Source: Nitrospinaceae bacterium (GTDB taxonomy: Bacteria > Nitrospinota > Nitrospinia > Nitrospinales > Nitrospinaceae). From it: a DNA stretch of 64,000 nucleotides. Under the pieces are notes generated by a model, which did no database searches, had not been told where the DNA came from, and saw only the letters and a program-made list of their open reading frames with translations. The DNA is taken from positions 2,016,001 to 2,080,000 of the forward strand of contig OZ245011.1 of assembly GCA_965223665.1 (NCBI GenBank), read 5' to 3'. Every line of letters begins with the position of its first letter. Position 1 is the first letter of the stretch. Both the position numbers and the translations under genes were made by a program. Positions 22,363-51,351 of the stretch are shown in pieces.

Positions 22363-22422
22363 TGATAAATTGTCACAAACTCACGTAATTAATTAGCCTA
22401 CATTTAAAATATTTTTATTAAT

Positions 22423-23145: not shown

Positions 23146-23170
23146 ACAACGGTTCCTTTTTATACTTGTT

Positions 23171-32237: not shown

Positions 32238-33251
32238 TTACTCTCCCATTTGATCGAGTTTGCGTTCCAACTCCTGGACTTTTTGATGAATCGGTAAGTG
32301 TTGGTAGATGATTTGCGCTTTGAGGTAAGCTTTGAGTGCCGCAGGTTTGTCGCCCTGCTGTTCGTAAAGTTTGCCGATGTGAACCCAGTCTTCCGCCACG
32401 CGAGGATGATACTCTCCGTAGGTTTTCTGATTGCTGACGAGGGCACGCTCAAAATGTTCCATTGCTTTCTCAGTCTCGCCCTTTATTTGCAGAGCCTGTC
32501 CCATGTGCGTCCAACCCATTGCCACGCTGGGATGCTCCCTGCCAAAAGCGGCCAGGTCGATGGCCAACGCTTTTTCATACGCAGCAAGGGCTTTGTCGAT
32601 GTCGCCCTTATCCTGCCAGGCGGATCCCAAATTGTTTAAACCAATCGCGACATTGGGATGATCCTCCCCCAACGTGTTGCGCCAACTTTGTGTGGCCTTC
32701 TGATAATAACCAATGGCGCGATCGTAATCGTGCTTGAGTTTCCAGGCCATTCCCAGGTTGTTCCAATCGCGTGCCACGCTGGGATGGTTTTGACCCAATG
32801 TTTTGAGATCGCTCGCGAGCGCTTTATCAAAATAGGCAATCGCCTGATCGTAGTTTCCTTTATCTTCCCAGGCGGTTCCCAAAAGATTATAAAGGTGTGC
32901 CACGTCCTGATGCTCGCTTCCATAAACAGGTTCCGCCTGCGCCAACGCTTTCTCGAAATATTCAATCGCCTTGGCCGAGGCCCCCTGCTCCAGCGACTCC
33001 ATGCCCAGATCAAGATAATGATTCATTTTAGCAACCGCATCTGTTGACGCGTCGCCGCTATTGCTACTGGATTCAGGTTTCTGTCTATCGCTGGCAGGAG
33101 GATCCGTGAGAGGTGCCGCTTCATCCGGAACCTGTTGGTCACTAGCCGATGGTGCTGTCGTATTCGTGTTAGATGCTTTCTGTGTTCCCGCACACCCGTT
33201 CAGTAGAAAGGCGGTGGCGAAAATTAATGTAATAAATAGTTTGTGTCTCAT
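32238..33251 (-). CDS. TPR lipoprotein
   Basis: Lipobox LNGC-AGTQ; 42-aa TPRs. Confidence 0.92.
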   Translation of the reverse strand: MRHKLFITLIFATAFLLNGCAGTQKASNTNTTAPSASDQQVPDEAAPLTDPPASDRQKPESSSNSGDASTDAVAKMNHYLDLGMESLEQGASAKAIEYFEKALAQAEPVYGSEHQDVAHLYNLLGTAWEDKGNYDQAIAYFDKALASDLKTLGQNHPSVARDWNNLGMAWKLKHDYDRAIGYYQKATQSWRNTLGEDHPNVAIGLNNLGSAWQDKGDIDKALAAYEKALAIDLAAFGREHPSVAMGWTHMGQALQIKGETEKAMEHFERALVSNQKTYGEYHPRVAEDWVHIGKLYEQQGDKPAALKAYLKAQIIYQHLPIHQKVQELERKLDQMGE

Positions 33252-34903
33252 AAGTCCCTCTGCAGGTTCATTTTTTTCCGGAGTGTTTTGATCCGCTGTT
33301 CCAGACCATTAACCTTTTGTTCTATCCCAGATTTTGAGTATATCTCTAACGCTTTTTGGTAAGCTTCCAAAGCGGCATCATATTCACCTTGCCATTCATA
33401 ATTTCGTGCCAGGTTGTACCAATTATCAGCAATTCGGGAGTGATTTTTTCCAAGTGTTTTCAAATTACTGGATAAGGCTTTAGTTAAATACTCAATTGAT
33501 TTTTCGAAATGGCCCTTTCTTCCCCAAGCGGTTCCTAAATTATTCCAATCACGAGCTACTCTGGGATTATCTTCGCCAAAATTTTTTAAATCACTAGCCA
33601 GAGCTTTTTCCATATACTCAACCGCTTTGTCAAACTCCCCTTTACTCTGCCAAACCAGTCCCAGGTTGTTCCAACGAGTGGCAACATGTGGGTGGCTCTC
33701 CCCTAAGTTTTTAATATCGCTCGCCAGACTTTTTTCTAAATACGCAATACCTTCGTCATAATTACCTTTAAGCTGCAATATATATCCTATGTTTCCCCAA
33801 TCTCGGGCAACACTCGGATGGCCTTCCCCTAAGGCCTTGAGGTCAATAGCTAAAGCCTTGTGTAAGTACTCCTCAGCTTTGTCAAATTCACCTTTTCCTT
33901 GCCAGGCCAGTCCCAGGTTGTTCCAAACAACTGCAACATGCGGATGGTTTTCTCCATAAGTTTTCAAATCGCTTTCCAATGCCATTTCATAATATTCAAT
34001 CGCTTTATCATACCTTTCCCTATTACTCCAGGCCAAGCCTAAATTATTCCTGGAGGTACTTACTCTAGGATGAGTATCCCCCAAAGCAGTCCGAAAACTA
34101 TTCAGTGCCTTTTCAAAATATTCAATTGCTTTTTTCGGATCTTCAATTGCCAGCCAATACCGTCCCAGATCACTCCAATCTTCAGCGACATAAAGGTGTT
34201 CCTCCCCAAAATTCCTTAAATCATTAGCAAGAGCTTTTTCAAAATAATGTTTTGCTTTTTCGTAATCCCCTTTAGCTTGCCAAACGGCTCCTAAACTGCT
34301 CCAATCCTTTGCAACATTTGAATGATCCTTTCCAAAATTTTTTAAATTAATATCCAGTGCTTGTTCTAAAAATTCAATTGCCTTTTCGTGGTTACCTTTT
34401 TTGGACCAGGCCATTCCCAAATAATTCCAATCTACAGCAACCTCCGGATGATTCTCACCATAATTTCTCACATCATAACTCCAGGTTTTTTCAAAGAAAT
34501 GTATGGCTTTATCGTAATCACCTAAAGCAAACCAGGCGATTCCAAGATTAAAACTATTGACCGCAACCTGATAACTATACTTCCCAAATTTTTCAAGGTT
34601 GTGTGACAAAGCTTTCTCATGATAAAAAACAGCCTTGTTATAGTTACCCTTTTCTCTCCATGCGACTCCTATAAAATTCCAAAGATTTGAGACATCCGGA
34701 TGATCTTTTCCATGCTGTTGGAGATGGTCGGCTAACTCTTTTTCGAAAAAAGCAATCGCCTCATCGTAACGCGCTTCCTCAATATACTTTTCACCTAATG
34801 ACTTGGAAGACTCTGCGTCAGAAGACCTCTGCGTCCCGGCACAGCCGTGAAGCAGCAAAGTCGCTGCAACTAAAAATGTAAAAATAATTTTTGCGTTAAT
34901 CAT
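33248..34903 (-). CDS. TPR lipoprotein (about 12 repeats)
   Basis: Likely start MINAKIIF at 34903; lipobox LHGC-AGTQ. Confidence 0.92.
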   Translation of the reverse strand: MINAKIIFTFLVAATLLLHGCAGTQRSSDAESSKSLGEKYIEEARYDEAIAFFEKELADHLQQHGKDHPDVSNLWNFIGVAWREKGNYNKAVFYHEKALSHNLEKFGKYSYQVAVNSFNLGIAWFALGDYDKAIHFFEKTWSYDVRNYGENHPEVAVDWNYLGMAWSKKGNHEKAIEFLEQALDINLKNFGKDHSNVAKDWSSLGAVWQAKGDYEKAKHYFEKALANDLRNFGEEHLYVAEDWSDLGRYWLAIEDPKKAIEYFEKALNSFRTALGDTHPRVSTSRNNLGLAWSNRERYDKAIEYYEMALESDLKTYGENHPHVAVVWNNLGLAWQGKGEFDKAEEYLHKALAIDLKALGEGHPSVARDWGNIGYILQLKGNYDEGIAYLEKSLASDIKNLGESHPHVATRWNNLGLVWQSKGEFDKAVEYMEKALASDLKNFGEDNPRVARDWNNLGTAWGRKGHFEKSIEYLTKALSSNLKTLGKNHSRIADNWYNLARNYEWQGEYDAALEAYQKALEIYSKSGIEQKVNGLEQRIKTLRKKMNLQRDL

Positions 34904-35000
34904 ATTCATCAATATCTTTTTCGATGGATCTTCGGATGTAACCAATTCCGGACTTCCTCGCAATTTCCAAAGCCTGCTCTAAATACCCTAATCCTATTTT
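34896..35000 (-). pseudogene. Remnant of the 3' end of a 37905-type TPR gene
   Basis: Near copy of 37905-38000 (YLEQALEIARKSGIGYIRRSIEKDIDEYD*). Confidence 0.8.
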
Positions 35001-35029: not shown

Positions 35030-37912
35030 TCAAAGTTTGTTAATTTGCTGACGCGCAATTGAAATATTTTCCAATATCTCTTCAACCTCCGGGTGAGAAT
35101 CATCTAAAGTTTTTCGATAAACAGTCAACGCTTTTTCAAAATAAGAGATGGCTTTCTCAAATTCTCCTTTGTCGAAAAAAACTTTTCCAATGTTATTCAT
35201 TTGGAATGCCACATCCGGATGATCCTCCCCCAGGGTTTTTCTATGCAGTTCCAAACTCTTTTCCAAATAGCTTTCGGCTTTGTCTAAATCTCCTTTTTGA
35301 TACCAAGTTTGTCCCAGAATTAGATATTCCACTGGAACGTCGGGGTGGTTTTCGCCAAAATTTTTTAAATTGCTGTTCAAAGCTTTTTCTAAATAGGAAA
35401 CTGCTTTTTCCAAATTCCCTTTAAGAAGCCACATAGAACCGAGATTAGCCCAATCGGCTGCGACTGTTGAATGATCCTCTCCCCAAAATGCTTGGTGAAT
35501 AGCTAATCCCTTTTCCATATTACTAATAGCTTTATCAAACTCGCCTTTATTGCCCCAGGCCACTCCTAAAGCCGTCCAAATGCTACCAATATCAGGATGA
35601 TCTTCACCATAAGTTTTAATCATAGGGATCAGTGCCTTTTTATAATACTCAATCGCTTTATCATGCTGACCAATATTATCTAGAGCTTCACCCAAATTAT
35701 TCCATTTCACGGCCACTTGCGGATTATCTTCCCCCAAGTTTTTAAGGTCGCTTGCTATCGCCTTTTCGTAATACTCAATCGCTTTTCTATAGTTTTCTAA
35801 ATTAGACCAAACAACGCCCAGGTTGTTCCATACGATTGCTACTTGAGGATGGTCTGGGCCAAAATTTTTCAAGGTGCTTTCCAAAGCTTTTTCTAAATAC
35901 TCTATGGCTTTTTCATTTTCACCTTTTTTCCCTAAAGTTTCCCCAATATTGTTCCAGTCTCTTGCAACACTAGGGTGACCTTCGCCAAAGTTTTTAAGGT
36001 CAGCTGCAAGGGCTTTTTCAAAATGCATCAAGGCCTTTTCATAATTTCCTCTTCCAGACCAAACAGCCCCCATTAAGCTATCAACTTGGCTTTTGTCAGC
36101 CGGGTCCCCCTCAGGGGTGTTGAATTTCTTATCTAGTTTTTTACCCATTAGGGAATAGAGTCTGTCTCCGTGACCTGCTTCAATATAAGCCCGCAAAAAC
36201 TCTTGTTTACTTTTTATTTCCGGATGGCTTTTCGCAAACGCTCCCATATGTTTACGCAATTCTTCCTCTTCAGCTTGAAGTTCCGGATCAATATCACTTG
36301 AGCCCATTTCCAGCTCAGGGTTGAGACCTTTTGAATCCCATTTAAGTTGATTGTCTCCAAGAAAATCAACCTTTGTTTTGGAATTATTAGAGCCCTTGTT
36401 AAATTTATTTTTTCGATTTTTAAGTTTTAAAAATTCAGAGACAATCTCCTCATTCTCTGTTTTTTCCATAGGAGAATTTTTATCTGCTTGTTCACTCTCT
36501 TCTATGTTGTCAGTAATTTCCGGGCTCAAATTATTTGATTCAATGGCTTGTTCAGCTTCTCTAATTTGTTGCCTGAGAAAACCTATATCCGGATGATCTT
36601 CCTTCTGGTAAAAAAGGTTAACAGCCAGTGCATTTTTAAAATAATCGACTGCTTTAAAGTATTCTTTCTTTGCTATCCAATTCGTTCCCAAAGATTTTTG
36701 AACAGAAGCCACCTGAGGATGGTCACTGCCCAGGATTTTCATATCGTTTTCCAAAGCGCTTTCTAAATACTCAATGGATTTATTATTGTCTCCCATTATA
36801 TAAAAAATATTCCCCAGAGCTTTTTGACCTCTAGAAATATTTAGATGCCCTTCCTTGTAAACATTTTGATCATGAGCTAAGGCTTTTTCATAATAAGAAA
36901 TGGCCTTCTGTGTATCATTTTTTTCTTGCCAATACTTACCCAAACTTAACCATAGTTCAGACACTCTCAGAGGAAGCTTTCCCATCCCATTGATACCGTT
37001 TTCAACCTTTTCAAAAAAGCTAGCAGCTTTGTCTTCCTCATCTCTCAAAAACCAAACCTCTCCCAAATAGCTATAATCCAGAAATACGTTAAAATGATTT
37101 TCGCCGAAATTTTTTAAATCACTGCTTAAAGCTTTCTCAAAGTATTCTGTTGCTGGAATCAAATCACCTTTGTCCTTATTTGCTAATCCAAGGTACTTCC
37201 AATCTCGCGCAACTCTGGAATGATTTTCTCCAAAATTCTTAAGATCAATAGCCAAAGCCGACTCTAAATATTCTAATTCCTGGACCCTGTCTCCTTTAAA
37301 GTTCCAAACCTTTCCTATATTTATATATATATCCGCCATGTAGGAATGATCTTCCAGAAAGGCATTTGAAGTACTCTTTAAAGCTTCTTTAAAATATTCG
37401 ATAGCCAACTCAAGGTCCATCATTAAAAAATAAACCTTACCCAGTTCGTTCCAATCCCGAGCTACATTGAGATGGTCTTTGCCAAAATGTTTCACATCGC
37501 TGGCTAAAGCTTTCTCCAAATATTCAACCGCCTTATCATATTGCCCTTTTTCCCGCCACACTTGTCCAAGGTAATTCCAATCGGTGGCGACTTCTGGATG
37601 GTCTTCTCCATAATCCTTGAGATGGGCCGCCAACTCTTTTTCGAAAAAGGCAATCGCCTCATCGTAACGCGCTTCCTCAAGGTACTGTTCACCTAACGTT
37701 TTGTTAGAATCTTCCGGATCAATGTGAAAGGTTTCTTTATTGGGTTTGTCAACTTCTTTAGGTATGGGAGGATTGGAATCATTCGTTGAAGAAGCTGGAC
37801 CAGATTGGAGGGACTTAGAAACATCGTCACTATTCTTCTGTGTCCCCGCACAACCGTTCATAAGAAAAGTCGCTGCAACTAATAATGTAAAAATAACTTT
37901 TGAGTTAATCAT
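35030..37912 (-). CDS. Large chimeric TPR lipoprotein
   Basis: Likely start MINSKVIF at 37912; lipobox MNGC-AGTQ; two TPR blocks separated by a linker and a helical domain shared with 37905-38762. Confidence 0.92.
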   Translation of the reverse strand: MINSKVIFTLLVAATFLMNGCAGTQKNSDDVSKSLQSGPASSTNDSNPPIPKEVDKPNKETFHIDPEDSNKTLGEQYLEEARYDEAIAFFEKELAAHLKDYGEDHPEVATDWNYLGQVWREKGQYDKAVEYLEKALASDVKHFGKDHLNVARDWNELGKVYFLMMDLELAIEYFKEALKSTSNAFLEDHSYMADIYINIGKVWNFKGDRVQELEYLESALAIDLKNFGENHSRVARDWKYLGLANKDKGDLIPATEYFEKALSSDLKNFGENHFNVFLDYSYLGEVWFLRDEEDKAASFFEKVENGINGMGKLPLRVSELWLSLGKYWQEKNDTQKAISYYEKALAHDQNVYKEGHLNISRGQKALGNIFYIMGDNNKSIEYLESALENDMKILGSDHPQVASVQKSLGTNWIAKKEYFKAVDYFKNALAVNLFYQKEDHPDIGFLRQQIREAEQAIESNNLSPEITDNIEESEQADKNSPMEKTENEEIVSEFLKLKNRKNKFNKGSNNSKTKVDFLGDNQLKWDSKGLNPELEMGSSDIDPELQAEEEELRKHMGAFAKSHPEIKSKQEFLRAYIEAGHGDRLYSLMGKKLDKKFNTPEGDPADKSQVDSLMGAVWSGRGNYEKALMHFEKALAADLKNFGEGHPSVARDWNNIGETLGKKGENEKAIEYLEKALESTLKNFGPDHPQVAIVWNNLGVVWSNLENYRKAIEYYEKAIASDLKNLGEDNPQVAVKWNNLGEALDNIGQHDKAIEYYKKALIPMIKTYGEDHPDIGSIWTALGVAWGNKGEFDKAISNMEKGLAIHQAFWGEDHSTVAADWANLGSMWLLKGNLEKAVSYLEKALNSNLKNFGENHPDVPVEYLILGQTWYQKGDLDKAESYLEKSLELHRKTLGEDHPDVAFQMNNIGKVFFDKGEFEKAISYFEKALTVYRKTLDDSHPEVEEILENISIARQQINKL

Positions 37913-38762
37913 ATTTATCAATATCTTTTTCGATGGATCGTCGGACGTAACCAATTCCGGACTTCTTCGCGATTTCCAGAGCCTGCTCCAAATAATCCAA
38001 ACCTTTTTTCGTTTCGCCCTTTTCAGCCCACACTCTACCCAAACCACTTAAATCCCATGCAACATCTGGGTGATCTTTTCCCAGGTTTTTCAAATCGCTT
38101 ATATATGCTTTCTCATAATAACCTAAGGCTTTATCGAAGGACTTCTTTTTTTCCCAGGCCAAACCGATTGCAAACCAATTTCTAGCCACTACTTGGTGAT
38201 CCTTTCCAAAACTGTTAATATTGCTGGCGAGAGCTTTCTCAAAATACTCAAGCGCTTTATCATAACCACCTTTTTTTCCCAACACTCTTCCTATATTGCT
38301 CCAGTCTTGCGCAACTTTAGGGTGATCTTGGTCCAAGTGTTTCAGATCAGTTGCGAGAGCTTTTTTAAAATGGATAAGAGACTTATCATAATTGCCTTTT
38401 GCTAACCAAATGGTCCCCATAAATTTATCCACTTGGCTTTTTTCCTCCGGATCCGCATCTTCGGCATCAAATTTCCTTTCTAATTTTTTACCCATAAAAG
38501 AATAAAGTTTATCTCCGTGGCCTGCCTCAACATAGGCCCTTAATAACTCACGCTTTCCTTTAAGTTCCGGATGGCTTTTTGCAAACGCTGCCATATGATT
38601 TCGTATCTCTTCTTCAGCGGCAAACTCCGAATTTTCTGAGCTCTCCCCACGGCCAGCAACCTCAGATGTACTTGTTGCATTAGCAGGTTTTTTTCCTCCG
38701 GCACAACCGTGAAAAAAAATTGCAGCGACCACGGTCAAAATAACAATAAGATTCATTCTCAA
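37905..38762 (-). CDS. TPR lipoprotein
   Basis: Lipobox FHGC-AG; TPRs; first gene of the array. Confidence 0.9.
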   Translation of the reverse strand: MRMNLIVILTVVAAIFFHGCAGGKKPANATSTSEVAGRGESSENSEFAAEEEIRNHMAAFAKSHPELKGKRELLRAYVEAGHGDKLYSFMGKKLERKFDAEDADPEEKSQVDKFMGTIWLAKGNYDKSLIHFKKALATDLKHLDQDHPKVAQDWSNIGRVLGKKGGYDKALEYFEKALASNINSFGKDHQVVARNWFAIGLAWEKKKSFDKALGYYEKAYISDLKNLGKDHPDVAWDLSGLGRVWAEKGETKKGLDYLEQALEIAKKSGIGYVRRSIEKDIDKYD

Positions 38763-41051: not shown

Positions 41052-42746
41052 CTACCTCACATTAAAAGAGCCTGGTGGGGCGGGTTTTTTCTGACGGGGT
41101 TTGGCGACACCGCGCTCCACTAATGCTTTAAGGCGAGCTTCCTCTTTGGCTTTTAAAGCTTCCGGGCTTTTATCGTATTGCTTAAACCGTCGCTGGGCCA
41201 ACGTATAAAACACTCCCGATGTTCCGAACTGATCCATGTAGTCTTTATAGTCCTGCGCGTTTTTACTGTTCTTGATTGCATTCCAAAACTCTTTGTCCAA
41301 CTCCAGTTGAATGGTTGCGGGAGTTTCTTGGGTCGACTTGGAAGCCATCGGCTTCTCTTTTTGTTTCGCATCAAATTTAACTAACGCCAGCGGCAGACGG
41401 CTTTCCAGGTCACCTTTGAAATCGGGAATCTGCGCCGACTTGGTTTTCGTTTTTACTTTTTCACGGACCCATTCATACGCTTCTTTCACATCCACCACGC
41501 CATTTTTTTTGCCGTCGGCAAACCCGTCGACTTCCACCGCCTGGTCCGTCAAGGCTTTAATCAGGTAATAAGTGAAGATGCTTTTCTTTTTATCTGCATC
41601 TTGACTTTGTTCTTTTTGACCAAACTCCTGCGACACCTGCGTGGCACGACTGGAAGTGATGATGTTAATACCTTCGTAAGACTTGCGCAGGTTTTTCAGA
41701 TAATCGTTGACGCTGTTCACTCCCTTGGCCTGCCCCACCGTACCAATGGCACCGCTGTGGCACACATCGGCGATGACCAGTTTGCGTTTCGCACGGTTCT
41801 CACTGATCCACCGGTAAATATCATCCATGCGCATGGAGGTACCCGGCAAATCCGAAGCGTCTGCATCGGACGGTAAAAAGAAAAATCGGTTAGACCGACG
41901 CGGGTCCGGCAGCCCGTGACCGGACAGATAAATCACTACGTAGTCCTGCTCGTCGGCTTCTTCTAAAAACGTTCCAAGGGCGGAACGAATGGAATTTAGA
42001 GTTACATTGTTTCCGGACAAAAACCGAATGTGATCTTCCGGAAAACTTCCGCCCTGTGGACTCTTTAAAAATTTATAAAACGCGGTGGCATCTTCCACCG
42101 GTGACGTCAGATCCGGGATGTTGCCTTTGTAATCCGCCACGCCGATGATCACCGCCCAGCGATCGCCTTTGAAAGCTTTTCTTCTGGATGGCTTCGACCG
42201 GGTTTGGCTTTTCTGTTTTTGCCCAAGGTTCTTTTTTTGATTTGCTAAAGCTTCTTCCAATTCTTTGATTTTAGCCTGGTCTTTTGCTCGGGTTTTCCTG
42301 TGTTCTTCTTTTAACTTATTAAGATTTTCTTTATACGATTTTTCCAAGTTCATTTGCTTGATTCTGACTTCCTTCATTTCCATTTCCAACTCCATGGCCT
42401 TTAACTGGTCTACCCCCTGCACTTCCTGCAATTTTTTCCGAATGTCTGACTCCCTTCTCGCGAGGGCATTTTTATAATCCTGAATCGAGTTGACATCTAT
42501 AGGTTCCCGATTACCATCCAGGGAATCATGGATACGAATTTTATTCTCCACCTTATCACCCATAACCTTGTCGCCGCCAAAGGTATCGCCAATATTAATG
42601 TTTCCTTTATTGTTAACGATATCGCCGGTTTGATTACCGCGGGCCTGAGCGTTCACCTCCTGAGAAATCCCAATCAAAAAACAGGCCAAAACTGCCCCCA
42701 TCAATAAGGATGCTGCCATGGATTGTTTTTGCGGTTCAGGAGTCAT
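41052..42746 (-). CDS. Secreted caspase-like (peptidase C14) protein with an N-terminal G/N/D-rich motif and coiled coil
   Basis: RWAVIIGVADY; catalytic YLSGHG and ADVCHSG; SIFTYYLIKAL, Q.P; signal peptide ending VNA-Q. Confidence 0.93.
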   Translation of the reverse strand: MTPEPQKQSMAASLLMGAVLACFLIGISQEVNAQARGNQTGDIVNNKGNINIGDTFGGDKVMGDKVENKIRIHDSLDGNREPIDVNSIQDYKNALARRESDIRKKLQEVQGVDQLKAMELEMEMKEVRIKQMNLEKSYKENLNKLKEEHRKTRAKDQAKIKELEEALANQKKNLGQKQKSQTRSKPSRRKAFKGDRWAVIIGVADYKGNIPDLTSPVEDATAFYKFLKSPQGGSFPEDHIRFLSGNNVTLNSIRSALGTFLEEADEQDYVVIYLSGHGLPDPRRSNRFFFLPSDADASDLPGTSMRMDDIYRWISENRAKRKLVIADVCHSGAIGTVGQAKGVNSVNDYLKNLRKSYEGINIITSSRATQVSQEFGQKEQSQDADKKKSIFTYYLIKALTDQAVEVDGFADGKKNGVVDVKEAYEWVREKVKTKTKSAQIPDFKGDLESRLPLALVKFDAKQKEKPMASKSTQETPATIQLELDKEFWNAIKNSKNAQDYKDYMDQFGTSGVFYTLAQRRFKQYDKSPEALKAKEEARLKALVERGVAKPRQKKPAPPGSFNVR

Positions 42747-44854
42747 TTCTTTTCACCCATTTCTTCTATAAGGGGATTCAGAAAACTATCCACCTCATTG
42801 ACCTTATAATCCAACTCGAATTTTTGATACATCAGCCTGGATTTTTGGTAATACTCTTTTGCCATAGGATAATTGCCTAGAATTTCGTTAACGTAACCCA
42901 GGTTAAACAATGTGGTACCCATATCCGGATGGCTTCCACCAAACGATTTATTTTGGTTGTTCAGCGCTTTTTCAAAATAGGTTTTCGCAGTAACAAAATC
43001 TTCTTTTTGAACCCACGCCGTTCCCATGTTGTTCCAATCAATAGCTACTTTGGGATGGTTTTCTCCAAAGTTTTTTAAATCACTGGACTCGGCCTTTTTA
43101 AAATATTCAATTGCCTTTTCCAGGTTCCCCTTGCCTTGCCAGGCCAATCCAAGGTTATTCCAACTGGTAGCAACATCAGGATGTTGTTCACCAAGATATT
43201 TTTTAAAACGTTCGCTGGCTTTTTCAAAGTACCGGATTGATTGGTCGAAGTCTCCTTTATTTTGCCAGACAAGCCCCAGATTATTCCAATTATGGGCGAG
43301 GTTCGGATATTCTTCCCCAAAGTTTTTAATATCGCTGTGCAGGGACTTGTTGAAAAATTCGATGGCCTTATCATACTCTCCCTTGTAATTCCACACACCT
43401 CCCAAATTATTCCAAAGCGTCGAAACAGAAGGATGATCTTTTCCATATACTTTAAGATTACTATTTAAGGCCTTTTCAAAATACTCAATTGCTTTGTCAT
43501 AATTTCCTTTAGCACTCCACGCTTCCCCCAGAAAATTCCAACTGGTATTATTAAAATGGTGATCACTTCCTAATGAGAGTTGTCGGCTCGCCAGAGCTTT
43601 TTTTAAAAAATCGATCCCCTTATCGGCATCTCCTTTTCGGAGCCAGGCTATCCCCAGTAAATCCCAACCCGTCGAAATTTTGGGATGCGTTTCATCATAA
43701 ACCTTATTAAAAATTTCCTGGGCACTCTGGAACAATTCGATTGCGTGATCGAATTGACCCTGGATCAAAAAAGACAACCCCAATGCACTTTTACTTTCTG
43801 CAACCTCAGGACTGAATTCGCCAGTGGTTTTTAAAAAAATATTTAGTGATTTTTCAAAATTCTCTGTGGCCTTTTCAATTTTTCCCTGCACGACCCAGGC
43901 ACCTCCCAGGTTCAGTAGTACTTCCGCAAACTCTTTATTGTTTTCTCCTATTTCCTTTTTGTTAATTTTAAAAGCTTCTTTCATCAAGGACTCGGTCTTA
44001 TCATATTGCCCCAGGTATATATACGAAATACTCAATTGATTCATAACATCGATCAAGGCAGGATAATCTTTGGAAGAAGAATTTTTATAAAGCCGCTGAG
44101 CTTTTTCCAGATAGGAGATGGCCTCCCGATTTTGTCCAAAATCATTTAAAAACTTTCCAAACTGATTTTGATAGGAAGGGTTTTCCGGACTCAACTGAAT
44201 AGCCTGCTTAAAATTTTTATACGCTTTCGAATAGTTAGCTTGGTTTTCCGCTAACTTGGCAATTTGAAACGCTGCTTCCGCCGCCTGTTTTTGAGTCTGC
44301 TCTAAAGATTTTAAGTTTTCACTCAAAGCCTGTTGGAACAAGGCTTCTGCTTTTTCCGTCTTACCTTTGGCCAGGTTTGACTGGGCTTCTGCCAGTTGAT
44401 CTTTAGGAATAGACGGCTGCCGCTCTAAGGCCGCCGTCGCCTCGGCCAATAGAATTTTAGTTTTTTCCAGATCTTTCTCGACATGTTTCAGTCGGTCTTC
44501 GGTAAACTTCAATACCTTTTCTAATAGCCCGACTTTTTCCTTATCCTTTTGCTGGCCCTTCTCATATTCACTTTTCAACTGCTCGCGGACTCTGTTGATT
44601 TCTTTTTCCAGTTCGCGTTTATGATCCTCCAGCGTGATGCCAATGTTGATTATTTTATTTCCCTGGACTTTATCTCCCTGAACCTGGTCTCCGAGATGCA
44701 CCTGTCCCTGGTTATTTTGGATGTCTCCAACCTGGTTTTCCTGGGCAAAAGCCCCCGGCACCCTCCCCAAAAAACCGCACACCAAAACGGCTCCTATATA
44801 TAAGGAAACAACTAATGATTTTTTTCGGTATTTAAGTGTCATTTTCGCACTCAT
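42743..44854 (-). CDS. Secreted TPR protein with an N-terminal G/N/Q/D-rich motif and coiled coil
   Basis: Signal peptide ending AFA-Q; about 12 TPRs; ATGA overlap with the caspase gene. Confidence 0.93.
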   Translation of the reverse strand: MSAKMTLKYRKKSLVVSLYIGAVLVCGFLGRVPGAFAQENQVGDIQNNQGQVHLGDQVQGDKVQGNKIINIGITLEDHKRELEKEINRVREQLKSEYEKGQQKDKEKVGLLEKVLKFTEDRLKHVEKDLEKTKILLAEATAALERQPSIPKDQLAEAQSNLAKGKTEKAEALFQQALSENLKSLEQTQKQAAEAAFQIAKLAENQANYSKAYKNFKQAIQLSPENPSYQNQFGKFLNDFGQNREAISYLEKAQRLYKNSSSKDYPALIDVMNQLSISYIYLGQYDKTESLMKEAFKINKKEIGENNKEFAEVLLNLGGAWVVQGKIEKATENFEKSLNIFLKTTGEFSPEVAESKSALGLSFLIQGQFDHAIELFQSAQEIFNKVYDETHPKISTGWDLLGIAWLRKGDADKGIDFLKKALASRQLSLGSDHHFNNTSWNFLGEAWSAKGNYDKAIEYFEKALNSNLKVYGKDHPSVSTLWNNLGGVWNYKGEYDKAIEFFNKSLHSDIKNFGEEYPNLAHNWNNLGLVWQNKGDFDQSIRYFEKASERFKKYLGEQHPDVATSWNNLGLAWQGKGNLEKAIEYFKKAESSDLKNFGENHPKVAIDWNNMGTAWVQKEDFVTAKTYFEKALNNQNKSFGGSHPDMGTTLFNLGYVNEILGNYPMAKEYYQKSRLMYQKFELDYKVNEVDSFLNPLIEEMGEKK

Positions 44855-45315
44855 TTATTACAAATTTAGGGATAGAGGGCTGTTACTGCACTTGAAAATT
44901 TCGCTATTATTATAATTTTTTTTCCAAAATATGCACCCTCACCCAAAACTCCCCCTCTGAAATTGGCGGAAATTATTGATTTTAAAAATTTTACAGCTCA
45001 TACTACCGATTAAATTCCGTCCCAGTTCCTATAAAAACAAGTTTTCAACGAATCGTAACACATAAAATGAGTCTATAGAGAGGGTTTCATTATTAATTGC
45101 CGACGGTTTGTCGAGCAATTTATGACAAAAGGGACTATATTTAATGACAGCATTAATATAGTTAAAACGATATTGATTGAAGTTCCCCGGTGTTATTTTC
45201 AGAATAGGTAATCGGTAACTCTATAGACATGTGAGCGGTGAGATGAGCGGTTCAAAAATTCATAGGGTGGGTTCGCCGAAAAATTTTTAAATTTGAAATC
45301 GACAAAGGGGGAAAC

Positions 45316-47832
45316 ATGAAGCCATTCAAATTTTCAGGGGCAATTTTAATTGCCAGTATTTTTTTATTGAACTGTATCACTGTATCCTGGGCACAGTCCA
45401 TTTCCGGTTTAGCATCTATTAAGGAAGCCACCAAGTCCAAAGGAAAAGTGCGTGTCATCGTTAGACTCAAAACAGCCACCCCAAGACCAACCGAAGCCTT
45501 ATTGAAAGGTGTTCGGTCCACCTTTTCCTCTACCATGTCTGCGGCCGGCGTTCAGGATTCTGAAGCGATCCCCGGGTCCGCTTTAATGGTTTTGACGTTG
45601 AATGATCAAGAGTTGCAGGCTCTGGAGAGAAGCGGACAAGTCACACAAATGTTCGAGGACAAAGCGTATCCTCCAAGCTTGAATCAGGCAGTCCCTCACG
45701 TCAATGGTGACGATACCTGGAACCTCGGGTTTACGGGAAGTGGACAAACCATCGCCATTTTAGATACCGGCGTGGATTCCAACCATTCCTTTTTTCAAAA
45801 CCGAATCGTGGCGGAAGCTTGTTTTTCCAGCACCGTACCCGGACAAGGCTCTACCTCGGTATGTCCTAACGGTCAAAACCAGCAAATAGGTCAAGGGGCC
45901 GGTAAGGATTGCACGAATACGATCAGCAGCTGTAGCCATGGAACTCACGTGGCCGGAATTGCCGCGGGAAATGGTGGAGATTTCTCCGGTGTGGCCAAGG
46001 ATGCCAATATTATTTCCATTCAGGTGTTTTCCAAATTTACCGATCAACCGGGTGGTGCCTCGAATTGTGCCAACGCCGGTCGACCTTCCCCCTGTATGCT
46101 CACATATATTTCTGATCAAATTAAAGCGCTGCAACATGTACGCACCCTGGCCAATACCATGGAAATCGCCTCGGTCAACATGAGTCTCGGCGGAGGAAAA
46201 TCTGTTTCGCATTGTGATAACGATCCTACAAAAGAATCGATTGATCAACTTCGTGGTTTGGACATTGCCACCGTCATTGCATCAGGAAACAGTTCGCATA
46301 CTGATGGAGTGGGTTTTCCATCCTGTGTTTCCTCCGCAATCACAGTCGGAGCCACGGCCCGATTTGTAGACAGTGTCGCCAGTTTTTCCAACAGTTCTCC
46401 ATTGATAGACTTGTTGGCTCCCGGTGTTAGCATCCGCGCCGCAGTTCCTGGCGGAGGATTGGGAAATAAAAGCGGAACTTCCATGGCTACTCCAATGGTC
46501 GCCGGGGCCTGGGCGGTTTTGATGCAGCAAAATCCAACCGCAACCGTTTCGGACATTGAAACTGTATTAAAAGACACTGGCGTCCTGGTAACCGATAACC
46601 GCAACAACGTCACCAAGCCTCGCATTGATATTCTTAAAGCGGCACAAGGTGGCGGACCACAACTGACGGCTGATATGGAGCTTGAGTTGAAAGGCAGTCC
46701 TAATGAAGTTTCACCCGGAATGGACGTGGCTTACACCTACACCATCAAAAACGTAGGCACCAAAGCCGGCGAAGCCAGACTGGTGAGTCATATCACTCCG
46801 GAAATCGAGTTTAAATCCGTATCCGCTAACAGTTGTAAAAATTCGCCCCAGGATGTGGTTTGTGAATTGTTCACCATTCAGCCCCAGGCGCACAAAGAAG
46901 TGACCATTAACTACACGGTCAAACAAACTTCCGCGACGCTGATCAACCATAACGCCGAAGTTCAAAGTCAGGATGACAGCAACTCGAATAATAATACCGC
47001 CTCGATACAGACTGCGGTAGCTCCTGCAACCGTTGCCGGCTCTCACTGTCTGTCACCGGATGTGAACATTGCGGACAATGACAACAAAGGGGTGTCCAGC
47101 ATGATGACTGTGGCGAACTCGACTTCTGCCACAAACTTGAAAGTGAAACTGGAAGTGGATCATAACTGGGTGGGTGATATCAAAGCCACACTCCGACATA
47201 TCCCGACCAATACAGTGATCACTTTGCTGGATCGACCGGGCCTTTCAACCTCAGCTTTTGGTTGTGGCAAAAATAATATCGATGTCACATTTGATGACTC
47301 AGCCTCGGAAGAAGCCAATGCAGCCTGCGAAACTCCCATTGCCATCGAAGGTAATTTGAAACCGGTTCAAACTCTGGCTTCGTTTGCAGGTGCCGATGCT
47401 AAAGGCGATTGGAAATTGAATGTGGCTGATATGGATGCTGGCGAAGCCGGTAAGCTCAAGAAGTGGTGCCTGGAATTGGAATCACCGGGTTTACCGCAAG
47501 TGGCAATCGCACCGGCACCTACGAAGGGAAATATTCAAAGCGCCAATCAGGAAGATAAATATGCGTTTACCATTCAGCAACCAGGAGATTACCAGGTGGT
47601 GGTCACAGGAAACCCGCAGGTTCAAATTTCGGTCCATTCGAAAGACAACCCGGGAACTCCCGTGGCTTCAGGCAATAACCAAACTGTGATCTCCGCTTTA
47701 GGAACCGGCGTGTATCATTTAACCGTCACTCCTAAAGATAATCAACAAACAGGAGACTACCAGCTGCAAGTGCACTCATTGAATCAGGGCAGTACCTCGG
47801 TGGCTGGACTGGCTTCTACATCGGATCAGTAA
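45316..47832 (+). CDS. S8 subtilisin-like protease with I9-like prodomain, DUF11-like, proprotein-convertase P and C-terminal PPC-like domains
   Basis: Catalytic triad ILDTG, HGTHVAG and SGTSMATP; P-domain H.WVGD...L...GDWKL.V.D...G.LKKW.L. Confidence 0.95.
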   Translation: MKPFKFSGAILIASIFLLNCITVSWAQSISGLASIKEATKSKGKVRVIVRLKTATPRPTEALLKGVRSTFSSTMSAAGVQDSEAIPGSALMVLTLNDQELQALERSGQVTQMFEDKAYPPSLNQAVPHVNGDDTWNLGFTGSGQTIAILDTGVDSNHSFFQNRIVAEACFSSTVPGQGSTSVCPNGQNQQIGQGAGKDCTNTISSCSHGTHVAGIAAGNGGDFSGVAKDANIISIQVFSKFTDQPGGASNCANAGRPSPCMLTYISDQIKALQHVRTLANTMEIASVNMSLGGGKSVSHCDNDPTKESIDQLRGLDIATVIASGNSSHTDGVGFPSCVSSAITVGATARFVDSVASFSNSSPLIDLLAPGVSIRAAVPGGGLGNKSGTSMATPMVAGAWAVLMQQNPTATVSDIETVLKDTGVLVTDNRNNVTKPRIDILKAAQGGGPQLTADMELELKGSPNEVSPGMDVAYTYTIKNVGTKAGEARLVSHITPEIEFKSVSANSCKNSPQDVVCELFTIQPQAHKEVTINYTVKQTSATLINHNAEVQSQDDSNSNNNTASIQTAVAPATVAGSHCLSPDVNIADNDNKGVSSMMTVANSTSATNLKVKLEVDHNWVGDIKATLRHIPTNTVITLLDRPGLSTSAFGCGKNNIDVTFDDSASEEANAACETPIAIEGNLKPVQTLASFAGADAKGDWKLNVADMDAGEAGKLKKWCLELESPGLPQVAIAPAPTKGNIQSANQEDKYAFTIQQPGDYQVVVTGNPQVQISVHSKDNPGTPVASGNNQTVISALGTGVYHLTVTPKDNQQTGDYQLQVHSLNQGSTSVAGLASTSDQ

Positions 47833-47833: not shown

Positions 47834-48265
47834 ATGAGTTTGCGACAATGGATTTCCGGGATAGTGATTTGCCTTGTGATGGGTTTCTCCCCAGCCATTA
47901 ACGCAGATCACTTTCCGGAACCTGTTGTGGATAAAGAATCGAAAGCCCTGGAGTTGCAAATTCAAACTTTGCGCGCCAAACTCCAGGACATTAAGGCGGT
48001 GCGCGTCTTAGTCAAGTTGAAAAAGGAAACCAGGGAGGAGTCGCCTCCTCCCTCGGTTCCGCAACCACCGGGTTCACTTTCGAAAGCACAGGAAAGTTTT
48101 GTGCAGCAAGTCGCCGGCCAGGGCGTAACGGCTTTGGAACCGCTGCAGGGAACCTCGCTGGTGTTGATGACTTTAACGGAAGAAGGTCTGGAGCGTGTGA
48201 TCGCAACTCAACAAGTCCAAACCATCCACGAAGACAGCCCCCTCCAACCATTTGGGATAAGGTAG
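47834..48265 (+). CDS. Secreted stand-alone propeptide (I9-like) homolog, candidate protease inhibitor or chaperone
   Basis: VRVLVKLK...PLQGTSLVLMTLTEEGLERV...V..IHED aligns with the upstream prodomain VRVIVRLK...IPGSALMVLTLNDQELQAL...V..MFED. Confidence 0.75.
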   Translation: MSLRQWISGIVICLVMGFSPAINADHFPEPVVDKESKALELQIQTLRAKLQDIKAVRVLVKLKKETREESPPPSVPQPPGSLSKAQESFVQQVAGQGVTALEPLQGTSLVLMTLTEEGLERVIATQQVQTIHEDSPLQPFGIR

Positions 48266-48300: not shown

Positions 48301-51300
48301 TTAATCCCTGGGAGGGTCAACAAACCCGGTTCCCCAATCTCGGCAAACAATTCGGTCCGCACGAATTCCACCGCAAAGGCCGCTGGTGCCTGCTTCACTG
48401 CAGTTGATATATGGATCTTTCCCCAAAGCTTTTTGAAATCCCAACATGTTCACTGTGGGAGCCCCACAACCTGAGTCCGGTGGACAATTGATATAAGGTG
48501 CCATGGAACCCCAGGTTAAAGTGAGTTCATCCGTTCGCTGGGAGTTAGCAAAATATGAATTTGCAAAAGATTTTGCAGGCTCAGGAATTTCAACATTTTG
48601 CTCACACTGATCCAGGTGAGGTGGACAATTATTCATAGCTTCACAACGGTTTTGAACTGCTTGATCACAACTAGGCTCTCCTGAAGTACCTCCACTTTCT
48701 GTTTCAGGTTGGGATGGCTGGTCCTCTTCTTCTGGTGTTTCAGGAGTATTCCCTCCAGAAGTCACAGGTTGATTTCCTTCGTCGGGGTCGCCAACGATAA
48801 TCCTAGGAGCTGGTGGTGGTTCAGGTGGGTTCCCATCATAAATTTCGTTAAAACCCCTCGCAATATCATCACTAAATTCAATTACAGCATCCCCAATTCT
48901 ATCCGGAATAGATCCTACAAATGGAATGTCCTTTGTATATTTTGCCCAATTCTTTAAACCTTGTCCTAAATATTCCACATCTTCAGCAGTAACATCCATC
49001 GCCCAGCTCCTTTTAACATTTAAGTCTTTAAAGGATTTGGCTGTTTTGAAAGGGGCAAATTTTTCAGACTTGGTCAAAGAAAGCGTTTCTCTAAAAAGTT
49101 GATGTGAAAATGTTGATGCAATTCCCTTAGGATACCATGCCGCCATCATTGCATCCTCCATAGCCAAAAGTTTGCTAACTGAGCCGGAATTGATAGCCGT
49201 TTTAAATGGATCAGACAGACTCCTTATGTTAGGGAGAGACATCCCAGGACGGTATCCTTGAACAAGTTCTTTTGCTTTTCTATAGGTATCCCAAAAAGTT
49301 CGTTCTAAGGGGGCTCGATTAAAATTATATTGAGTCGCTCTATTTTCAGGTCCGACTTCATATACTCTCAAAAATTCTGGTAGTTGTTGGCTTTCATTTA
49401 ATATACGATGTGCTAAAAAATTTTGTGTCAAATGTGTTTCACTCAAACCAAGCACCACTCCATATAAAGTAGCATAATTTTTACTTAAGATATTCCCCAT
49501 TAAACCTCGGCTAGCATTACCTCCATGAACCTGAAAGTTTTCAGGACAATCCCCGGTGACTTCTACTGCCCCACCAGAGTTTTGATTTCCTGCGTTTGGG
49601 TCAAAGACAGCTCTCCATCGTACTTTCCAAGTGCCGGAATGACTTTGAGAATCAGGAAGTTTAATACGAATGCTATTACCATCTAAACCAAAGACAAAAC
49701 AGGAATGGGTTAATGGATTTTGATTTCCTCGGCAGTTTCGAATGGTTTGAGAGGCACCTCGACTGCCGGCGGGTGTAATGACTTCTACTTCATGGCGAAA
49801 AGTGAGAAAGTTATCTGCAATTAACTTGACTATAAGGTCATTATCTTTGCTAACTGAAGCTTCATCGATATGAAGTGAGATAGTTTTCCACTGATTAGAA
49901 GATTTTAAGCCATTAAAAATTTCTTTTACTGCAAAATAATCACTTGATTTACCCGAAACTTTAAGCGACCAACTCATGAGATAACTTACTGAAACATTCA
50001 ATTCTCTTCCCGTTTCAGGGTCTACTTTAATAATTTGAAGTTTCCAGGTTCCATCCACTAATTTTCCTTTTAAGCTTGCAGGAATTGGAATTCCTCCTGA
50101 TCCTAATTTGACCCTGTAACGAGATCCATTTTGGGGATTATTCTTTAACCAAATGGATTCGCCTGTTGGGCTAACCAGCTTGACTTTGGTGTCTGTAATA
50201 TTATTTATGCCCGGACGAATTCTATTTAAATCTATAAGATCGGGCCGATGCATAATTGCAAATTTCACTTCAGCCGAGGAAAGATGAACCCCTGAAGCAA
50301 TGAGATTAGAAGCCCCTAATGCTGCATTTTTTATTGGGCCTGTTTGATTAAATCCATTAAAAAATTGGCGTACAACATTTTTTCGGGAAGGAAATGGGGT
50401 TAATTTTCCTTTCATCTTTAAGTTTACAGATTTGATATCAAATCGGGAAACGTAGGTTTTGGGAAGGGACAAATTGGTGGCAGTGGACCGAATAAGTAGA
50501 GCAATTTCTTTTCCATCCATTAAATCCCGATTTAATGAATCATGAAGTAACGGTCGTGTATCTCGTACTAAAATTGTCCATTTACCCGAACTCATTTTGG
50601 ACTGAATATCATTTGTTAAAGTGTATTTTAAGTTGTTTTTTGTATAAGTAGCTCTGTCTATACCATGTCTTGAAATAAAAGCCGCTTTATCTCTACTGCT
50701 ACATATTTCGAAAATAGCATTTCCCTTCCCCCACCATTTAGTGTTAGGACACTTAACCTTTTTAACTTTGATTTTCTTATTTCTATCAAATGTAGGGAAG
50801 CCATACCGATCCAAAATCGGATGAACAAGTTTGGCTTGTCGGCCTTGGCTTACCTCCAACCTTGCAATTCCTGGTAATTTAGAAACAGGGTAGTTCATAC
50901 TGATATTGGATCCTGAAGGCTCATAATGAAAAGCGTTTCCAACAAGATAGGAATCTCCATCGGGCGAAATGAGATATACTTCCACTTCATCAAAATTAGA
51001 TTTGGTTAATTGGAGAGGAGTCGTTGCCAATCCATTATTTGTTGATAATTTTGAGGGCTGCAACTTTAAATTGATCTGAATTTTTTCTAAATTTGCATTG
51101 TAGGCTAAAGGAACATCTATAGTAGCTATTTGTATTGGGGTTTGAAAAATAGAATTTAGATTCTGACTAATGACTTTTCCTTTATAAGTTTTTTCAAAAA
51201 CCCAACCCGGGCGAATTTGATTTCGCCTCAAGTGGTCAGCTATTGCATCTCTAAAAGGATCAGGGATTTCTCTGTCTTGGGCATAGGTAAAATTTCCACT

Positions 51301-51351
51301 GGATAAAAACAATATTATTAAGTACGCAATGATTATCAATTTTTTTCTCAT
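48301..51351 (-). CDS. Large secreted protein with three degenerate P-domain-like units and a Cys-rich C-terminus
   Basis: Signal peptide; VYLISPDG..GKWTILVRD, VKLVSPTG..GTWKLQI and VEVITPAG..GTWKVRW; Pro/Glu linker; AT-rich. Confidence 0.8.
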   Translation of the reverse strand: MRKKLIIIAYLIILFLSSGNFTYAQDREIPDPFRDAIADHLRRNQIRPGWVFEKTYKGKVISQNLNSIFQTPIQIATIDVPLAYNANLEKIQINLKLQPSKLSTNNGLATTPLQLTKSNFDEVEVYLISPDGDSYLVGNAFHYEPSGSNISMNYPVSKLPGIARLEVSQGRQAKLVHPILDRYGFPTFDRNKKIKVKKVKCPNTKWWGKGNAIFEICSSRDKAAFISRHGIDRATYTKNNLKYTLTNDIQSKMSSGKWTILVRDTRPLLHDSLNRDLMDGKEIALLIRSTATNLSLPKTYVSRFDIKSVNLKMKGKLTPFPSRKNVVRQFFNGFNQTGPIKNAALGASNLIASGVHLSSAEVKFAIMHRPDLIDLNRIRPGINNITDTKVKLVSPTGESIWLKNNPQNGSRYRVKLGSGGIPIPASLKGKLVDGTWKLQIIKVDPETGRELNVSVSYLMSWSLKVSGKSSDYFAVKEIFNGLKSSNQWKTISLHIDEASVSKDNDLIVKLIADNFLTFRHEVEVITPAGSRGASQTIRNCRGNQNPLTHSCFVFGLDGNSIRIKLPDSQSHSGTWKVRWRAVFDPNAGNQNSGGAVEVTGDCPENFQVHGGNASRGLMGNILSKNYATLYGVVLGLSETHLTQNFLAHRILNESQQLPEFLRVYEVGPENRATQYNFNRAPLERTFWDTYRKAKELVQGYRPGMSLPNIRSLSDPFKTAINSGSVSKLLAMEDAMMAAWYPKGIASTFSHQLFRETLSLTKSEKFAPFKTAKSFKDLNVKRSWAMDVTAEDVEYLGQGLKNWAKYTKDIPFVGSIPDRIGDAVIEFSDDIARGFNEIYDGNPPEPPPAPRIIVGDPDEGNQPVTSGGNTPETPEEEDQPSQPETESGGTSGEPSCDQAVQNRCEAMNNCPPHLDQCEQNVEIPEPAKSFANSYFANSQRTDELTLTWGSMAPYINCPPDSGCGAPTVNMLGFQKALGKDPYINCSEAGTSGLCGGIRADRIVCRDWGTGFVDPPRD

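Follow-up and report, generated by a model that had tools for sequence, protein, structure and literature searches.

Two overlapping genes in a stretch of 64,000 nucleotides from a Nitrospinaceae bacterium (contig OZ245011.1, positions 2,016,001 to 2,080,000; hereafter the window) encode a TPR_12 protein, P0001, and a caspase-like peptidase of family C14, P0002, and each of the two products carries the same repeat of 28 residues, here called motif A, just behind a predicted signal peptide. The pair is best explained as a two-gene operon that would provide a Sec-exported TPR_12 scaffold or sensor together with a metacaspase-like peptidase. As to the motif, we favor, tentatively and with a probability of about 0.45, the reading that it is a short homotypic pairing tag, an exported and compartment-specific variant that would couple TPR proteins with the protease and with two small proteins. 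Four observations carry this reading: the N-terminal module is shared by the two neighbors, its motif is conserved among further proteins of the genome, its extended form is restricted to exported-looking proteins, and its C-terminal part, a G-D-K repeat (GDK core), recurs in adjacent genes of distant bacteria.

Results

Two coupled genes with a common N-terminal module

The original prediction, made from the sequence of the window alone, described two translationally coupled genes, and the open reading frames (ORFs) bear this out: both lie on the minus strand and the start codon of the caspase gene overlaps the stop codon of the TPR gene as ATGA (Table 1). A scan for promoters and terminators gave counts close to the shuffle expectation. 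In P0001, TPR_12 reaches 266.8 bits over 6 stretches and TPR_10 158.2 bits, and the domain families found with Pfam and NCBIfam are TPR only, with neither NB-ARC nor NACHT. P0002 matches PF00656 with 69.1 bits (cutoff 21.4) over residues 196-447, and the best NCBIfam model for it is the "caspase, EACC1-associated type" (NF047832, 2.4e-31, 108.9 bits, below the cutoff of 140). Its His-Cys dyad is intact, as had been claimed: in an alignment with Arabidopsis metacaspase-4 (6w8s), SGHG (His277) and CHSG (Cys329) fall on the catalytic motifs of that enzyme, and the column of Cys329 holds Ala in its C-to-A mutant entry (6w8r). The AlphaFold2 model of the caspase, computed from an 11-row alignment (mean pLDDT 57), displays a helix at residues 9-36, an unconfident stretch at residues 37-85 with the motif inside it (pLDDT 27-40), a long helix at residues 88-174 (pLDDT 62-79), where the earlier description had placed a coiled coil, and a confident catalytic domain (pLDDT 75-90). 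At the C-terminus (residues ~477-544; window 41052-41320) four helices are predicted, without a Pfam match, which may resemble the repeats that are common behind bacterial caspase domains.

Both partners look exported, in agreement with the first description, although this judgment comes from inspection of the sequences: each has a hydrophobic core of 16-17 residues and a candidate cleavage site directly before the motif (AFA/QE in the TPR protein, VNA/QA in the caspase), and the n-region is basic in the former and weakly basic in the latter. The caspase was also considered as a lipoprotein, on account of VLAC at residues 19-22, and this was rejected, the lipobox being poor and a signal peptidase I site likelier.

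Motif A reads NQxGDIxxNxGxIxIGD in its N/Q-rich first half, after which GDK units follow, its C-terminal half being a G-D-K-[VI]-x pentapeptide repeat of which two-fifths is charged. Over 28 residues it holds G 5-6, N 4-5, Q 1-7, D 3-4, K 2-3, L 0-1 and no P. The copies of P0001 and P0002 are identical in 16 of 28 positions, as originally counted, and their alignment score of 91 compares with 18.3 +/- 5.7 for 500 shuffles (z=12.7). Different codons encode 14 of these 16 identical residues, so the likeness is old and has been maintained at the protein level. When the whole proteins were compared by BLASTP, only the N-terminal match was returned (38/107 identical, E=7e-14), and behind the motif the two were correctly called unrelated, with 15 of 61 aligned residues identical (z=1.4, no detectable similarity). 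The signal peptides of the pair are also significantly similar (13/32 identical, z=10.3-10.4).

The GDK-repeat family and its compartment split

The caspase N-terminus, used as a query, retrieved 11 places in the genome of the organism (4.35 Mb, 6 contigs), whose six-frame ORFs were also scanned in full with regular expressions and profiles. About 17 proteins carry G-[DN]-K-[VI]-x repeats, and they were divided by compartment by eye from their sequences. Ten are without an N-terminal signal: seven TPR_12 proteins, a NACHT NTPase (Pfam 1.8e-11), an iSTAND protein (2.7e-5) and a protein of 180 amino acids with a C-terminal membrane helix. The seven others, with a signal peptide or an N-terminal membrane helix, are P0001, P0002, three more TPR proteins and two small proteins, P0004 (195 amino acids, predicted cleavable signal) and P0003 (162 amino acids, N-terminal membrane helix). 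The extended motif A, or a second motif, B (ISGNQVNxIExNxGTxNIG), is confined to these seven and occurs in 0 of the 10 others. Motif A is found in six of them, namely three TPR proteins, the caspase, P0003 and P0004. Motif B is present as well in the two small proteins, where it matches the copy of a fourth exported TPR protein. Likewise, upon Smith-Waterman alignment of the repeat regions, the three best matches of each exported protein are other exported proteins.

Among its six carriers motif A is identical in 9-12 of 17 positions (for a truncated copy) to 21 of 28, whereas 13 of the 15 pairings of their signal peptides show no relationship (z<2.6), which indicates that the motif is under a constraint of its own. 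The original prediction had named as a danger that the motif might be no better conserved than its flanks; this doubt holds within the pair, where the signal peptides are alike too, and does not hold across the six proteins. The signal peptide of P0001 also resembles that of the motif-B TPR protein (z=7.9). The caspase motif shares 21 of 28 residues with P0004 and 20 of 28 with P0003, against the 16 shared with its TPR neighbor, and motif B is identical in 16-17 of 19 positions between proteins that are otherwise unrelated.

Behind the repeat lies a helical region of one of two types. That of P0001 is of type 1, 51-70% identical to those of five paralogues, and that of the caspase of type 2, 29-36% identical to those of four TPR paralogues. 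The module of signal and motif A is thus found on both head types, type 1 in the TPR protein and type 2 in the caspase, and the caspase looks like a type-2 head fused to a protease domain. Modeling of the two heads as a complex, from alignments A2 and A3, gave a score of 0.01 and a mark of 0.32, which speaks neither for nor against binding.

P0003 and P0004 consist largely of pseudo-repeats of the motifs, and neither was matched to a family in Pfam, NCBIfam, PADLOC or the PDB sequences; the AlphaFold2 model of P0004, built without an alignment, has a mean pLDDT of 40. A hexapeptide or other fixed-period solenoid was considered for the small proteins and rejected, the autocorrelation giving weak Gly periodicity at 5 and at 16-17 residues. 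For the heads and the small proteins, no model of Pfam (E<=1), NCBIfam (E<=0.1) or PADLOC covers the motif. The motif profile found no solved amyloid, fiber or other chain among the PDB sequences (best E=0.96, the chance level), and look-ups of P0004 and of caspase residues 30-80 in the ESM Atlas gave no usable match.

Motif sharing between adjacent genes of this genome

Most genes of the GDK family in this genome adjoin another member. About 39 kb past the end of the window, a cluster of three genes (G000:C1:2119281-2123175; loci L018 and L020) opens with the gene of P0004, whose C-terminus is motif A followed by motif B. Another ATGA overlap joins its stop codon to the start codon of a TPR gene with motif B at the mature N-terminus of the product (16/19 identical), and 9 bases after the latter begins a TPR gene with motif A. 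This cluster has the clearest amyloid-signaling gene layout in the genome. The tail of P0003 has the same A-plus-B composition, its motif B being identical in 17 of 19 residues to that of the motif-B TPR protein. A short stretch 5' of the P0004 gene (L020:~709-870; G000:C1:~2118870-2119035) matches many places in a genome of the same genus (G001), at 81-98% identity over 43-170 bases, and may belong to a small repeat element that is dispersed in that genome.

In the cytoplasmic branch of the family, a TPR gene is followed without spacer by a NACHT gene (G000:C1:1683329-1687063; locus L032). Their products share the N-terminal sequence GDKVGGDKVGRDK[IV]VxNYNI and are reciprocal best matches (score 117), and the pair looks like a split NLR-like receptor. 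It had been held distinctive that no NACHT-type ATPase was involved: this is right for the exported pair in the window and wrong for the family, of which this paralogous TPR-NACHT pair with its matched repeat is a part.

Distribution of motif A and the sister species

A profile of motif A, built from alignment A1, matched 2 of 41 genomes (the organism's own and 40 relatives), and the full motif A was present in 1 of the 41. In the same-genus genome G001 it matched only the GDK-plus-helix part of cytoplasmic paralogues. Among 120 genomes sampled from the phylum three were matched, the third at 23 bits, and the full motif A again occurred in one. Against 1.84 billion representative proteins the profile gave 7 matches at E<=0.001; three come from this genome, and the other four are three low-complexity sequences and a partial P-loop NTPase (by Pfam AAA_16, nSTAND1-like) in which IHIGDTVGGDKVMGNKIIN precedes the P-loop. 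A pattern for the first half of motif A, run on one genome per species (185,579 species), hit 79 stretches, none of which was confirmed. In word-indexed protein searches, caspase residues 1-110 retrieved the caspase itself alone among 107 candidates, TPR residues 1-185 one same-genus paralogue among 5,385 candidates, and NACHT residues 8-52 the NACHT protein itself alone among 4 candidates; because the method is insensitive to short repeats, these searches say little about absence.

In the sister species G001 the flanking genes are syntenic and the TPR-caspase pair is missing. The site holds a different gene, of 193 amino acids, and a short remnant (L073:1330-1620, corresponding to about 42600-44860 of the window), which lies on the minus strand and has stops. 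The 5' part of the remnant resembles the signal peptide of P0001, and its 3' part the end of the caspase signal and the start of the motif. A deletion by recombination of one 5' module with its homologue in the other gene would produce a remnant of this kind, and the module is accordingly probably older than the split of the two species. The gene of P0004 has no match in G001.

The closest homologues of the caspase domain, at 37-39% identity, occur in 4 of 4 genomes of one related genus. The three loci that were read there encode proteins of ~550 amino acids with predicted lipoprotein signals and an unrelated N-terminal domain; other related caspases combine a signal peptide and the caspase domain with a C-terminal domain that, by eye, looks of the FGE-sulfatase type. 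Exported caspases are therefore ordinary in this lineage, and it is the head that is unusual.

The GDK core in distant bacteria

In the same scan of 185,579 species, a pattern for the second half of the motif hit 93 stretches, and nine loci were confirmed, in Phormidium, Cyanobium, Limnothrix, another cyanobacterium, Kouleothrix, two Streptomyces, Bradyrhizobium and a member of the Saprospiraceae. At four of the nine, an adjacent gene carries a second copy: the C-terminus of an LRR-Roc-COR protein shares the motif with a DUF4926 protein, a DUF4062 protein with a GDK-NACHT-WD40 protein, and, at both Streptomyces loci, the C-terminus of a DUF6232 protein with two transmembrane (TM) segments with the N-terminus of a small protein. 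Further carriers in these loci have the orders EAD11-GDK-CHAT and helix-GDK-TM-NACHT. A metagenome scan returned 473 stretches and 13 confirmed GDK loci, seven of them with a second copy in a neighboring ORF; five of these seven belong to one DUF4062/NACHT-like family and two are near-identical contigs. Carriers in the metagenomes include EAD7-GDK-NB-ARC-TPR, PNP_UDP-GDK-TIR/SEFIR-STAND and CHAT proteins. The regular expression used for second copies finds 2 ORFs outside the family in 2.74 million six-frame residues of this genome, and with so low a background chance does not account for the neighboring copies.

At one of these loci (L063:2911-8330, with a near-copy, L064), a protein of 102 amino acids with an N-terminal membrane helix has the GDK motif at its C-terminus, and the next gene encodes a signal-peptide protein of 514 amino acids, of no known family, with the motif at its mature N-terminus. 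Genes for SLATT_5, a reverse transcriptase and an Mrr restriction endonuclease come after the two, and the locus looks like an independent exported GDK pair in a defense island. Neither the GDK motif nor an exported shared-motif pair is described in the main texts searched, whose figures and supplements may list the motif, and a literature text search with GDK-type strings returned irrelevant papers only.

Surroundings of the pair

Nearly every gene at 28397-54532 of the window, in which the pair lies, encodes an exported-looking protein (Table 1). Directly after the subtilase gene, positions 47834-48265 encode a small signal-peptide protein without a Pfam match which by eye resembles the N-terminal propeptide region of that same subtilase, so that it might act as a separate inhibitor or chaperone. 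Two adjacent paralogous genes for LuxR-type regulators (GerE domain, ~390 amino acids) lie at 54847-57188. The G+C content is 33-39% at positions 10001-24000, against 41-50% in most of the window, and this part may be a compositionally distinct island.

Table 1. Features of the TPR-caspase gene pair and of its surroundings, in window coordinates.
Feature	Positions	Strand	Evidence
TPR_12 protein gene (P0001, 703 amino acids, predicted exported)	42743-44854	-	ORF and translation; Pfam TPR_12 7.8e-81
C14 caspase-like peptidase gene (P0002, 564 amino acids, predicted exported)	41052-42746	-	ORF and translation; Pfam Peptidase_C14 5.8e-19
ATGA overlap of TPR stop and caspase start (translational coupling)	42743-42746	-	Sequence read
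Predicted signal peptide, TPR protein (residues 1-37, AFA/QE)	44744-44854	-	Inspection; 15-residue hydropathy maximum 2.46, residues 14-28
Motif A, TPR protein (residues 40-67)	44654-44737	-	Translation, motif alignment
Type-1 helical head, TPR protein (~residues 68-185)	44300-44653	-	51-70% identity, five paralogous heads (alignment A2)
TPR array (~residues 187-672)	42839-44296	-	Pfam TPR match positions
Predicted signal peptide, caspase (residues 1-33, VNA/QA)	42648-42746	-	Hydropathy maximum 2.51, residues 13-27; AlphaFold2 helix 9-36
Motif A, caspase (residues 38-65)	42552-42635	-	Alignment; monomer pLDDT 27-40
Type-2 long helix, caspase (residues 88-174)	42225-42485	-	AlphaFold2 helices 88-109 and 114-174; 29-36% identity to type-2 heads of TPR paralogues (alignment A3)
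Caspase p20-like catalytic domain (residues 196-447)	41406-42161	-	Pfam; metacaspase-4 alignment; pLDDT 75-90
Catalytic dyad codon, His277	41916-41918	-	Alignment to 6w8s/6w8r
Catalytic dyad codon, Cys329	41760-41762	-	Alignment to 6w8s/6w8r
Signal-peptide TPR protein	28397-28915		
Four TPR_12 lipoproteins with GCAG lipoboxes	32238-33251, 33248-34963, 35030-38047, 37905-38762		
Two large secreted proteins with proprotein-convertase P-domains, one an S8 subtilase	45316-47832, 48301-51351		
Two paralogous CBM96 proteins	51690-53090, 53114-54532		

Discussion

In the reading that we favor, the two proteins of the pair have a common N-terminal head made of a signal peptide, a repeat of ~30 residues rich in Gly, Asn, Gln and Asp (motif A), and a long helix. 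The GDK pentapeptide repeat may serve, here and in the foreign loci, as a tag that gathers separately encoded components, among them NACHT, NB-ARC, Roc-COR, CHAT, TIR-like and TPR proteins, and motif A, with its N/Q-rich first half, would be the extracytoplasmic version of that tag. We hypothesize that the mature N-termini co-assemble through strands outside the cytoplasm, and that this co-assembly would cluster the caspase with its TPR partners and so control its activity. Physical pairing, an activation that depends on clustering and any role in defense are what we infer from these sequence relationships.

Several points weigh against a pairing tag. Within the pair, the conservation of the signal peptide (z=10.4) comes close to that of the motif (z=12.7). 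This is the pattern expected if a 5' module was simply duplicated, and it implies that the whole N-terminal module was duplicated; tandem duplication alone can set paralogues side by side. The caspase motif is closer to those of the distant small proteins than to that of its neighbor, so the pair is not specifically matched, and in the monomer model of the caspase the motif lies in the region of lowest confidence given above (pLDDT 27-40). Full motif A was found in this genome only; of the recurrence in adjacent genes that had been anticipated, the part that stands concerns the GDK core, at four of nine foreign genome loci and seven of 13 metagenomic ones. As the pair was lost from the sister species, motif A is dispensable there. 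In foreign proteins, moreover, the GDK core also lies between the domains of one chain (EAD11-GDK-CHAT, EAD7-GDK-NB-ARC-TPR, PNP_UDP-GDK-TIR-STAND), a position that suits a linker or a processing site as well as it does a pairing tag.

The original prediction went further and proposed amyloid-type templating. In the form considered here, a triggered TPR sensor would seed a cross-beta or beta-solenoid fold on the caspase and the small proteins and thereby polymerize and activate them, as an exported counterpart of HET-s/NWD2 or Bell/NLR signaling. We regard this as rather unlikely. The motif, of ~28-30 residues, G/N/Q-rich, with alternating I/V and without Pro, comes near the composition that the Dyrka et al. 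2020 preprint, as far as its available text goes, reports for BASS motifs (enriched in Q/N/G/V/I, depleted in K/P/L), and the pseudo-repeats of the small proteins recall those reported there for some BASS and HET-s effectors. It is not confidently folded as a monomer, and one motif is shared by several sensors and effectors. The P0004/TPR/TPR cluster reproduces the published arrangement of C-terminal and N-terminal motifs in overlapping ORFs, and in this respect the predicted signature of amyloid signaling was indeed found, although not as a specific match within the window pair and in a motif with many Asp and Lys. Each motif A holds 3-4 Asp and 2-3 Lys per 28 residues, whereas the BASS motifs of that preprint are depleted in Lys, and stacking in register would align like charges. 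In the window pair, furthermore, both motifs are N-terminal and there is no NOD module for oligomerization, and foreign proteins with the GDK core between two of their own domains would have no need of templating by another protein. The match of the profile to solved amyloid chains stays at chance level (best E=0.96), and exported amyloid-signaling motifs were not found in the main texts searched, including the BASS preprint and the deep-learning paper on amyloid signaling motifs.

A different and rather improbable account grants the motif no pairing role: the repeat would be a flexible charged spacer or inter-domain linker that was inherited or recombined as part of the 5' module of a fast-expanding family. 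The joint conservation of signal peptide and motif in the pair is in line with this, as are the chimeric remnant in G001, which is expected from recombination between homologous 5' modules, the position of the GDK core between domains of single proteins, the low model confidence at the motif and the confinement of the family to one genus. A spacer, however, need not keep its sequence, yet the motif was kept in six proteins while 13 of their 15 pairs of signal peptides diverged, and its synonymous sites look saturated. The near-identity of motif B (16-17/19) between otherwise unrelated proteins is equally unexpected of a spacer, and so is the sharing of the motif, over a very low background, by neighbors with unrelated domains at foreign loci.

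We consider decidedly unlikely a wider form of templating, in which the family would make up an extracytoplasmic amyloid-like network without a NOD ATPase. It would comprise four exported TPR sensors (three with motif A, one with motif B) and three effectors (the caspase with A, the two small proteins with A and B), the motifs acting as orthogonal templating tags and the GDK core representing a further cross-beta family on NACHT, NB-ARC, Roc-COR and CHAT proteins.

It is very improbable that the motif is a processing site, whose tandem G-D-K units would be cut by the caspase here, or by CHAT or trypsin partners elsewhere, so that TPR proteins, small proteins or the protease itself would be freed from an N-terminal anchor or adaptor domain. 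Orthocaspases cleave after basic residues (PMC6426788, in the part of that paper available), the caspase of the pair aligns with a metacaspase, and each motif offers 2-3 Lys in a repeated context. In foreign proteins the cores lie between an adaptor (EAD11, EAD7) and CHAT or NB-ARC, or near the ends of CHAT proteins, and proteolytic release of effectors has been proposed or shown in related conflict systems, according to the available portions of PMC7159879 and of the Evans et al. preprint. Most GDK gene pairs of this genome, however, have no protease adjoining them, and the N/Q-rich first half and motif B, which lack Lys-rich repeats, are the best conserved parts. Finally, a structural co-polymer, in which the motif would build an extracytoplasmic fiber or layer in the manner of curli or of a bactofilin-type beta-helix that displays the TPR arrays and the protease, is extremely unlikely: seven exported proteins with different cargo domains do share one motif set, the small proteins are largely pseudo-repeats and the genes of the window at 28-54 kb encode almost only exported proteins (TPR lipoproteins, S8 proteases, CBM96), but no dedicated secretion or nucleation genes were found among the neighboring ORFs and Pfam matches, there is no similarity to solved fiber proteins, and the relatives of the motif in the cytoplasm belong to proteins of signaling type, NACHT and iSTAND among them.

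A pairing tag would place the genes beside two kinds of system that are already described, judged by the accessible parts of the sources. As in the BASS Bell/NLR pairs (Dyrka et al. 2020 preprint; Bab/Agp in E. coli), a Pro-free, G/N/Q-rich motif of ~25-30 residues is common to genes that are neighbors, collinear and in many cases overlapping, TPR repeats occur in the partner and there are effectors with pseudo-repeats; outside the window, the P0004 cluster also opens with a small protein that ends in the motifs, and the genes behind it start with them. In contrast to the BASS pairs, the partners in the window are exported and without NB-ARC or NACHT, and all members of the exported set have signal peptides or N-terminal membrane helices. 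No Bell domain was detected with the libraries searched, which may hold no Bell profile. Both motifs of the window pair are N-terminal, instead of lying at the C-terminus of the effector and the N-terminus of the receptor, and they are rich in Asp and Lys. On the tested features of motif position and NOD domain, the pair does not belong to BASS.

The second kind is the coupling by effector-associated domains (EADs) set out in the text of Kaur et al. 2020 (PMC7159879), where one adaptor likewise occurs on many differently armed proteins, linked and dispersed, and adjacent copies tend to match. The associated proteins, caspase/CHAT, STAND NTPases, iSTAND and TPR, are similar as well, and in foreign proteins the GDK core itself stands beside EAD11 and EAD7. 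The EADs of that text are, however, folded and mostly alpha-helical, whereas the tag considered here is a repeat of ~30 residues, exported and without a Pfam or NCBIfam model; amyloid is not mentioned in the text of that paper. The EACC1-caspase system, as far as it is presented in the available parts of PMC7159879 and the Evans et al. 2025 preprint, is likewise a two-gene, membrane-associated caspase system. Its caspase is the N-terminus of a cytoplasmic multidomain protein and its partner is the small, single-TM EACC1, whereas the 5' neighbor of the caspase in the window is a TPR protein of 703 amino acids and the score of the corresponding model, NF047832, is below its cutoff. For some sensors of conflict systems in multicellular bacteria, Dore et al. 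2024 (PMC10907252) predict signal peptides or periplasmic sensor domains in the portion available; these are C-type-lectin targets diversified by DGR and tied to MoxR/STAND ATPases, and not pairs tagged with a short motif. The logic that we propose would thus match that of the BASS Bell/NLR pairs and of EAD coupling.

In curli (CsgB/CsgA) and other extracellular functional amyloids, G/N/Q-rich repeats assemble on a template once Sec has exported them from the cytoplasm. The pair differs from curli in that no csgEFG-like genes lie nearby and in that large globular proteins bear the motif as a short tag, instead of its making up the bulk of a fiber subunit.

If the motif does pair proteins, regulated assembly of a protease or effector of the immune type would also take place in the periplasm or at the cell surface, and phage attachment, predators or neighboring cells would then be possible triggers. 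In fungi and bacteria, NLR-like receptors signal to death effectors encoded by separate genes through short motifs that adjacent genes share. In the literature searched, the cases described are cytoplasmic, whereas here seven exported-looking proteins are involved, among them a caspase-like protease with an intact dyad. The GDK core offers a sequence handle by which such pairs may be found in cyanobacteria, actinobacteria, Chloroflexi and others.

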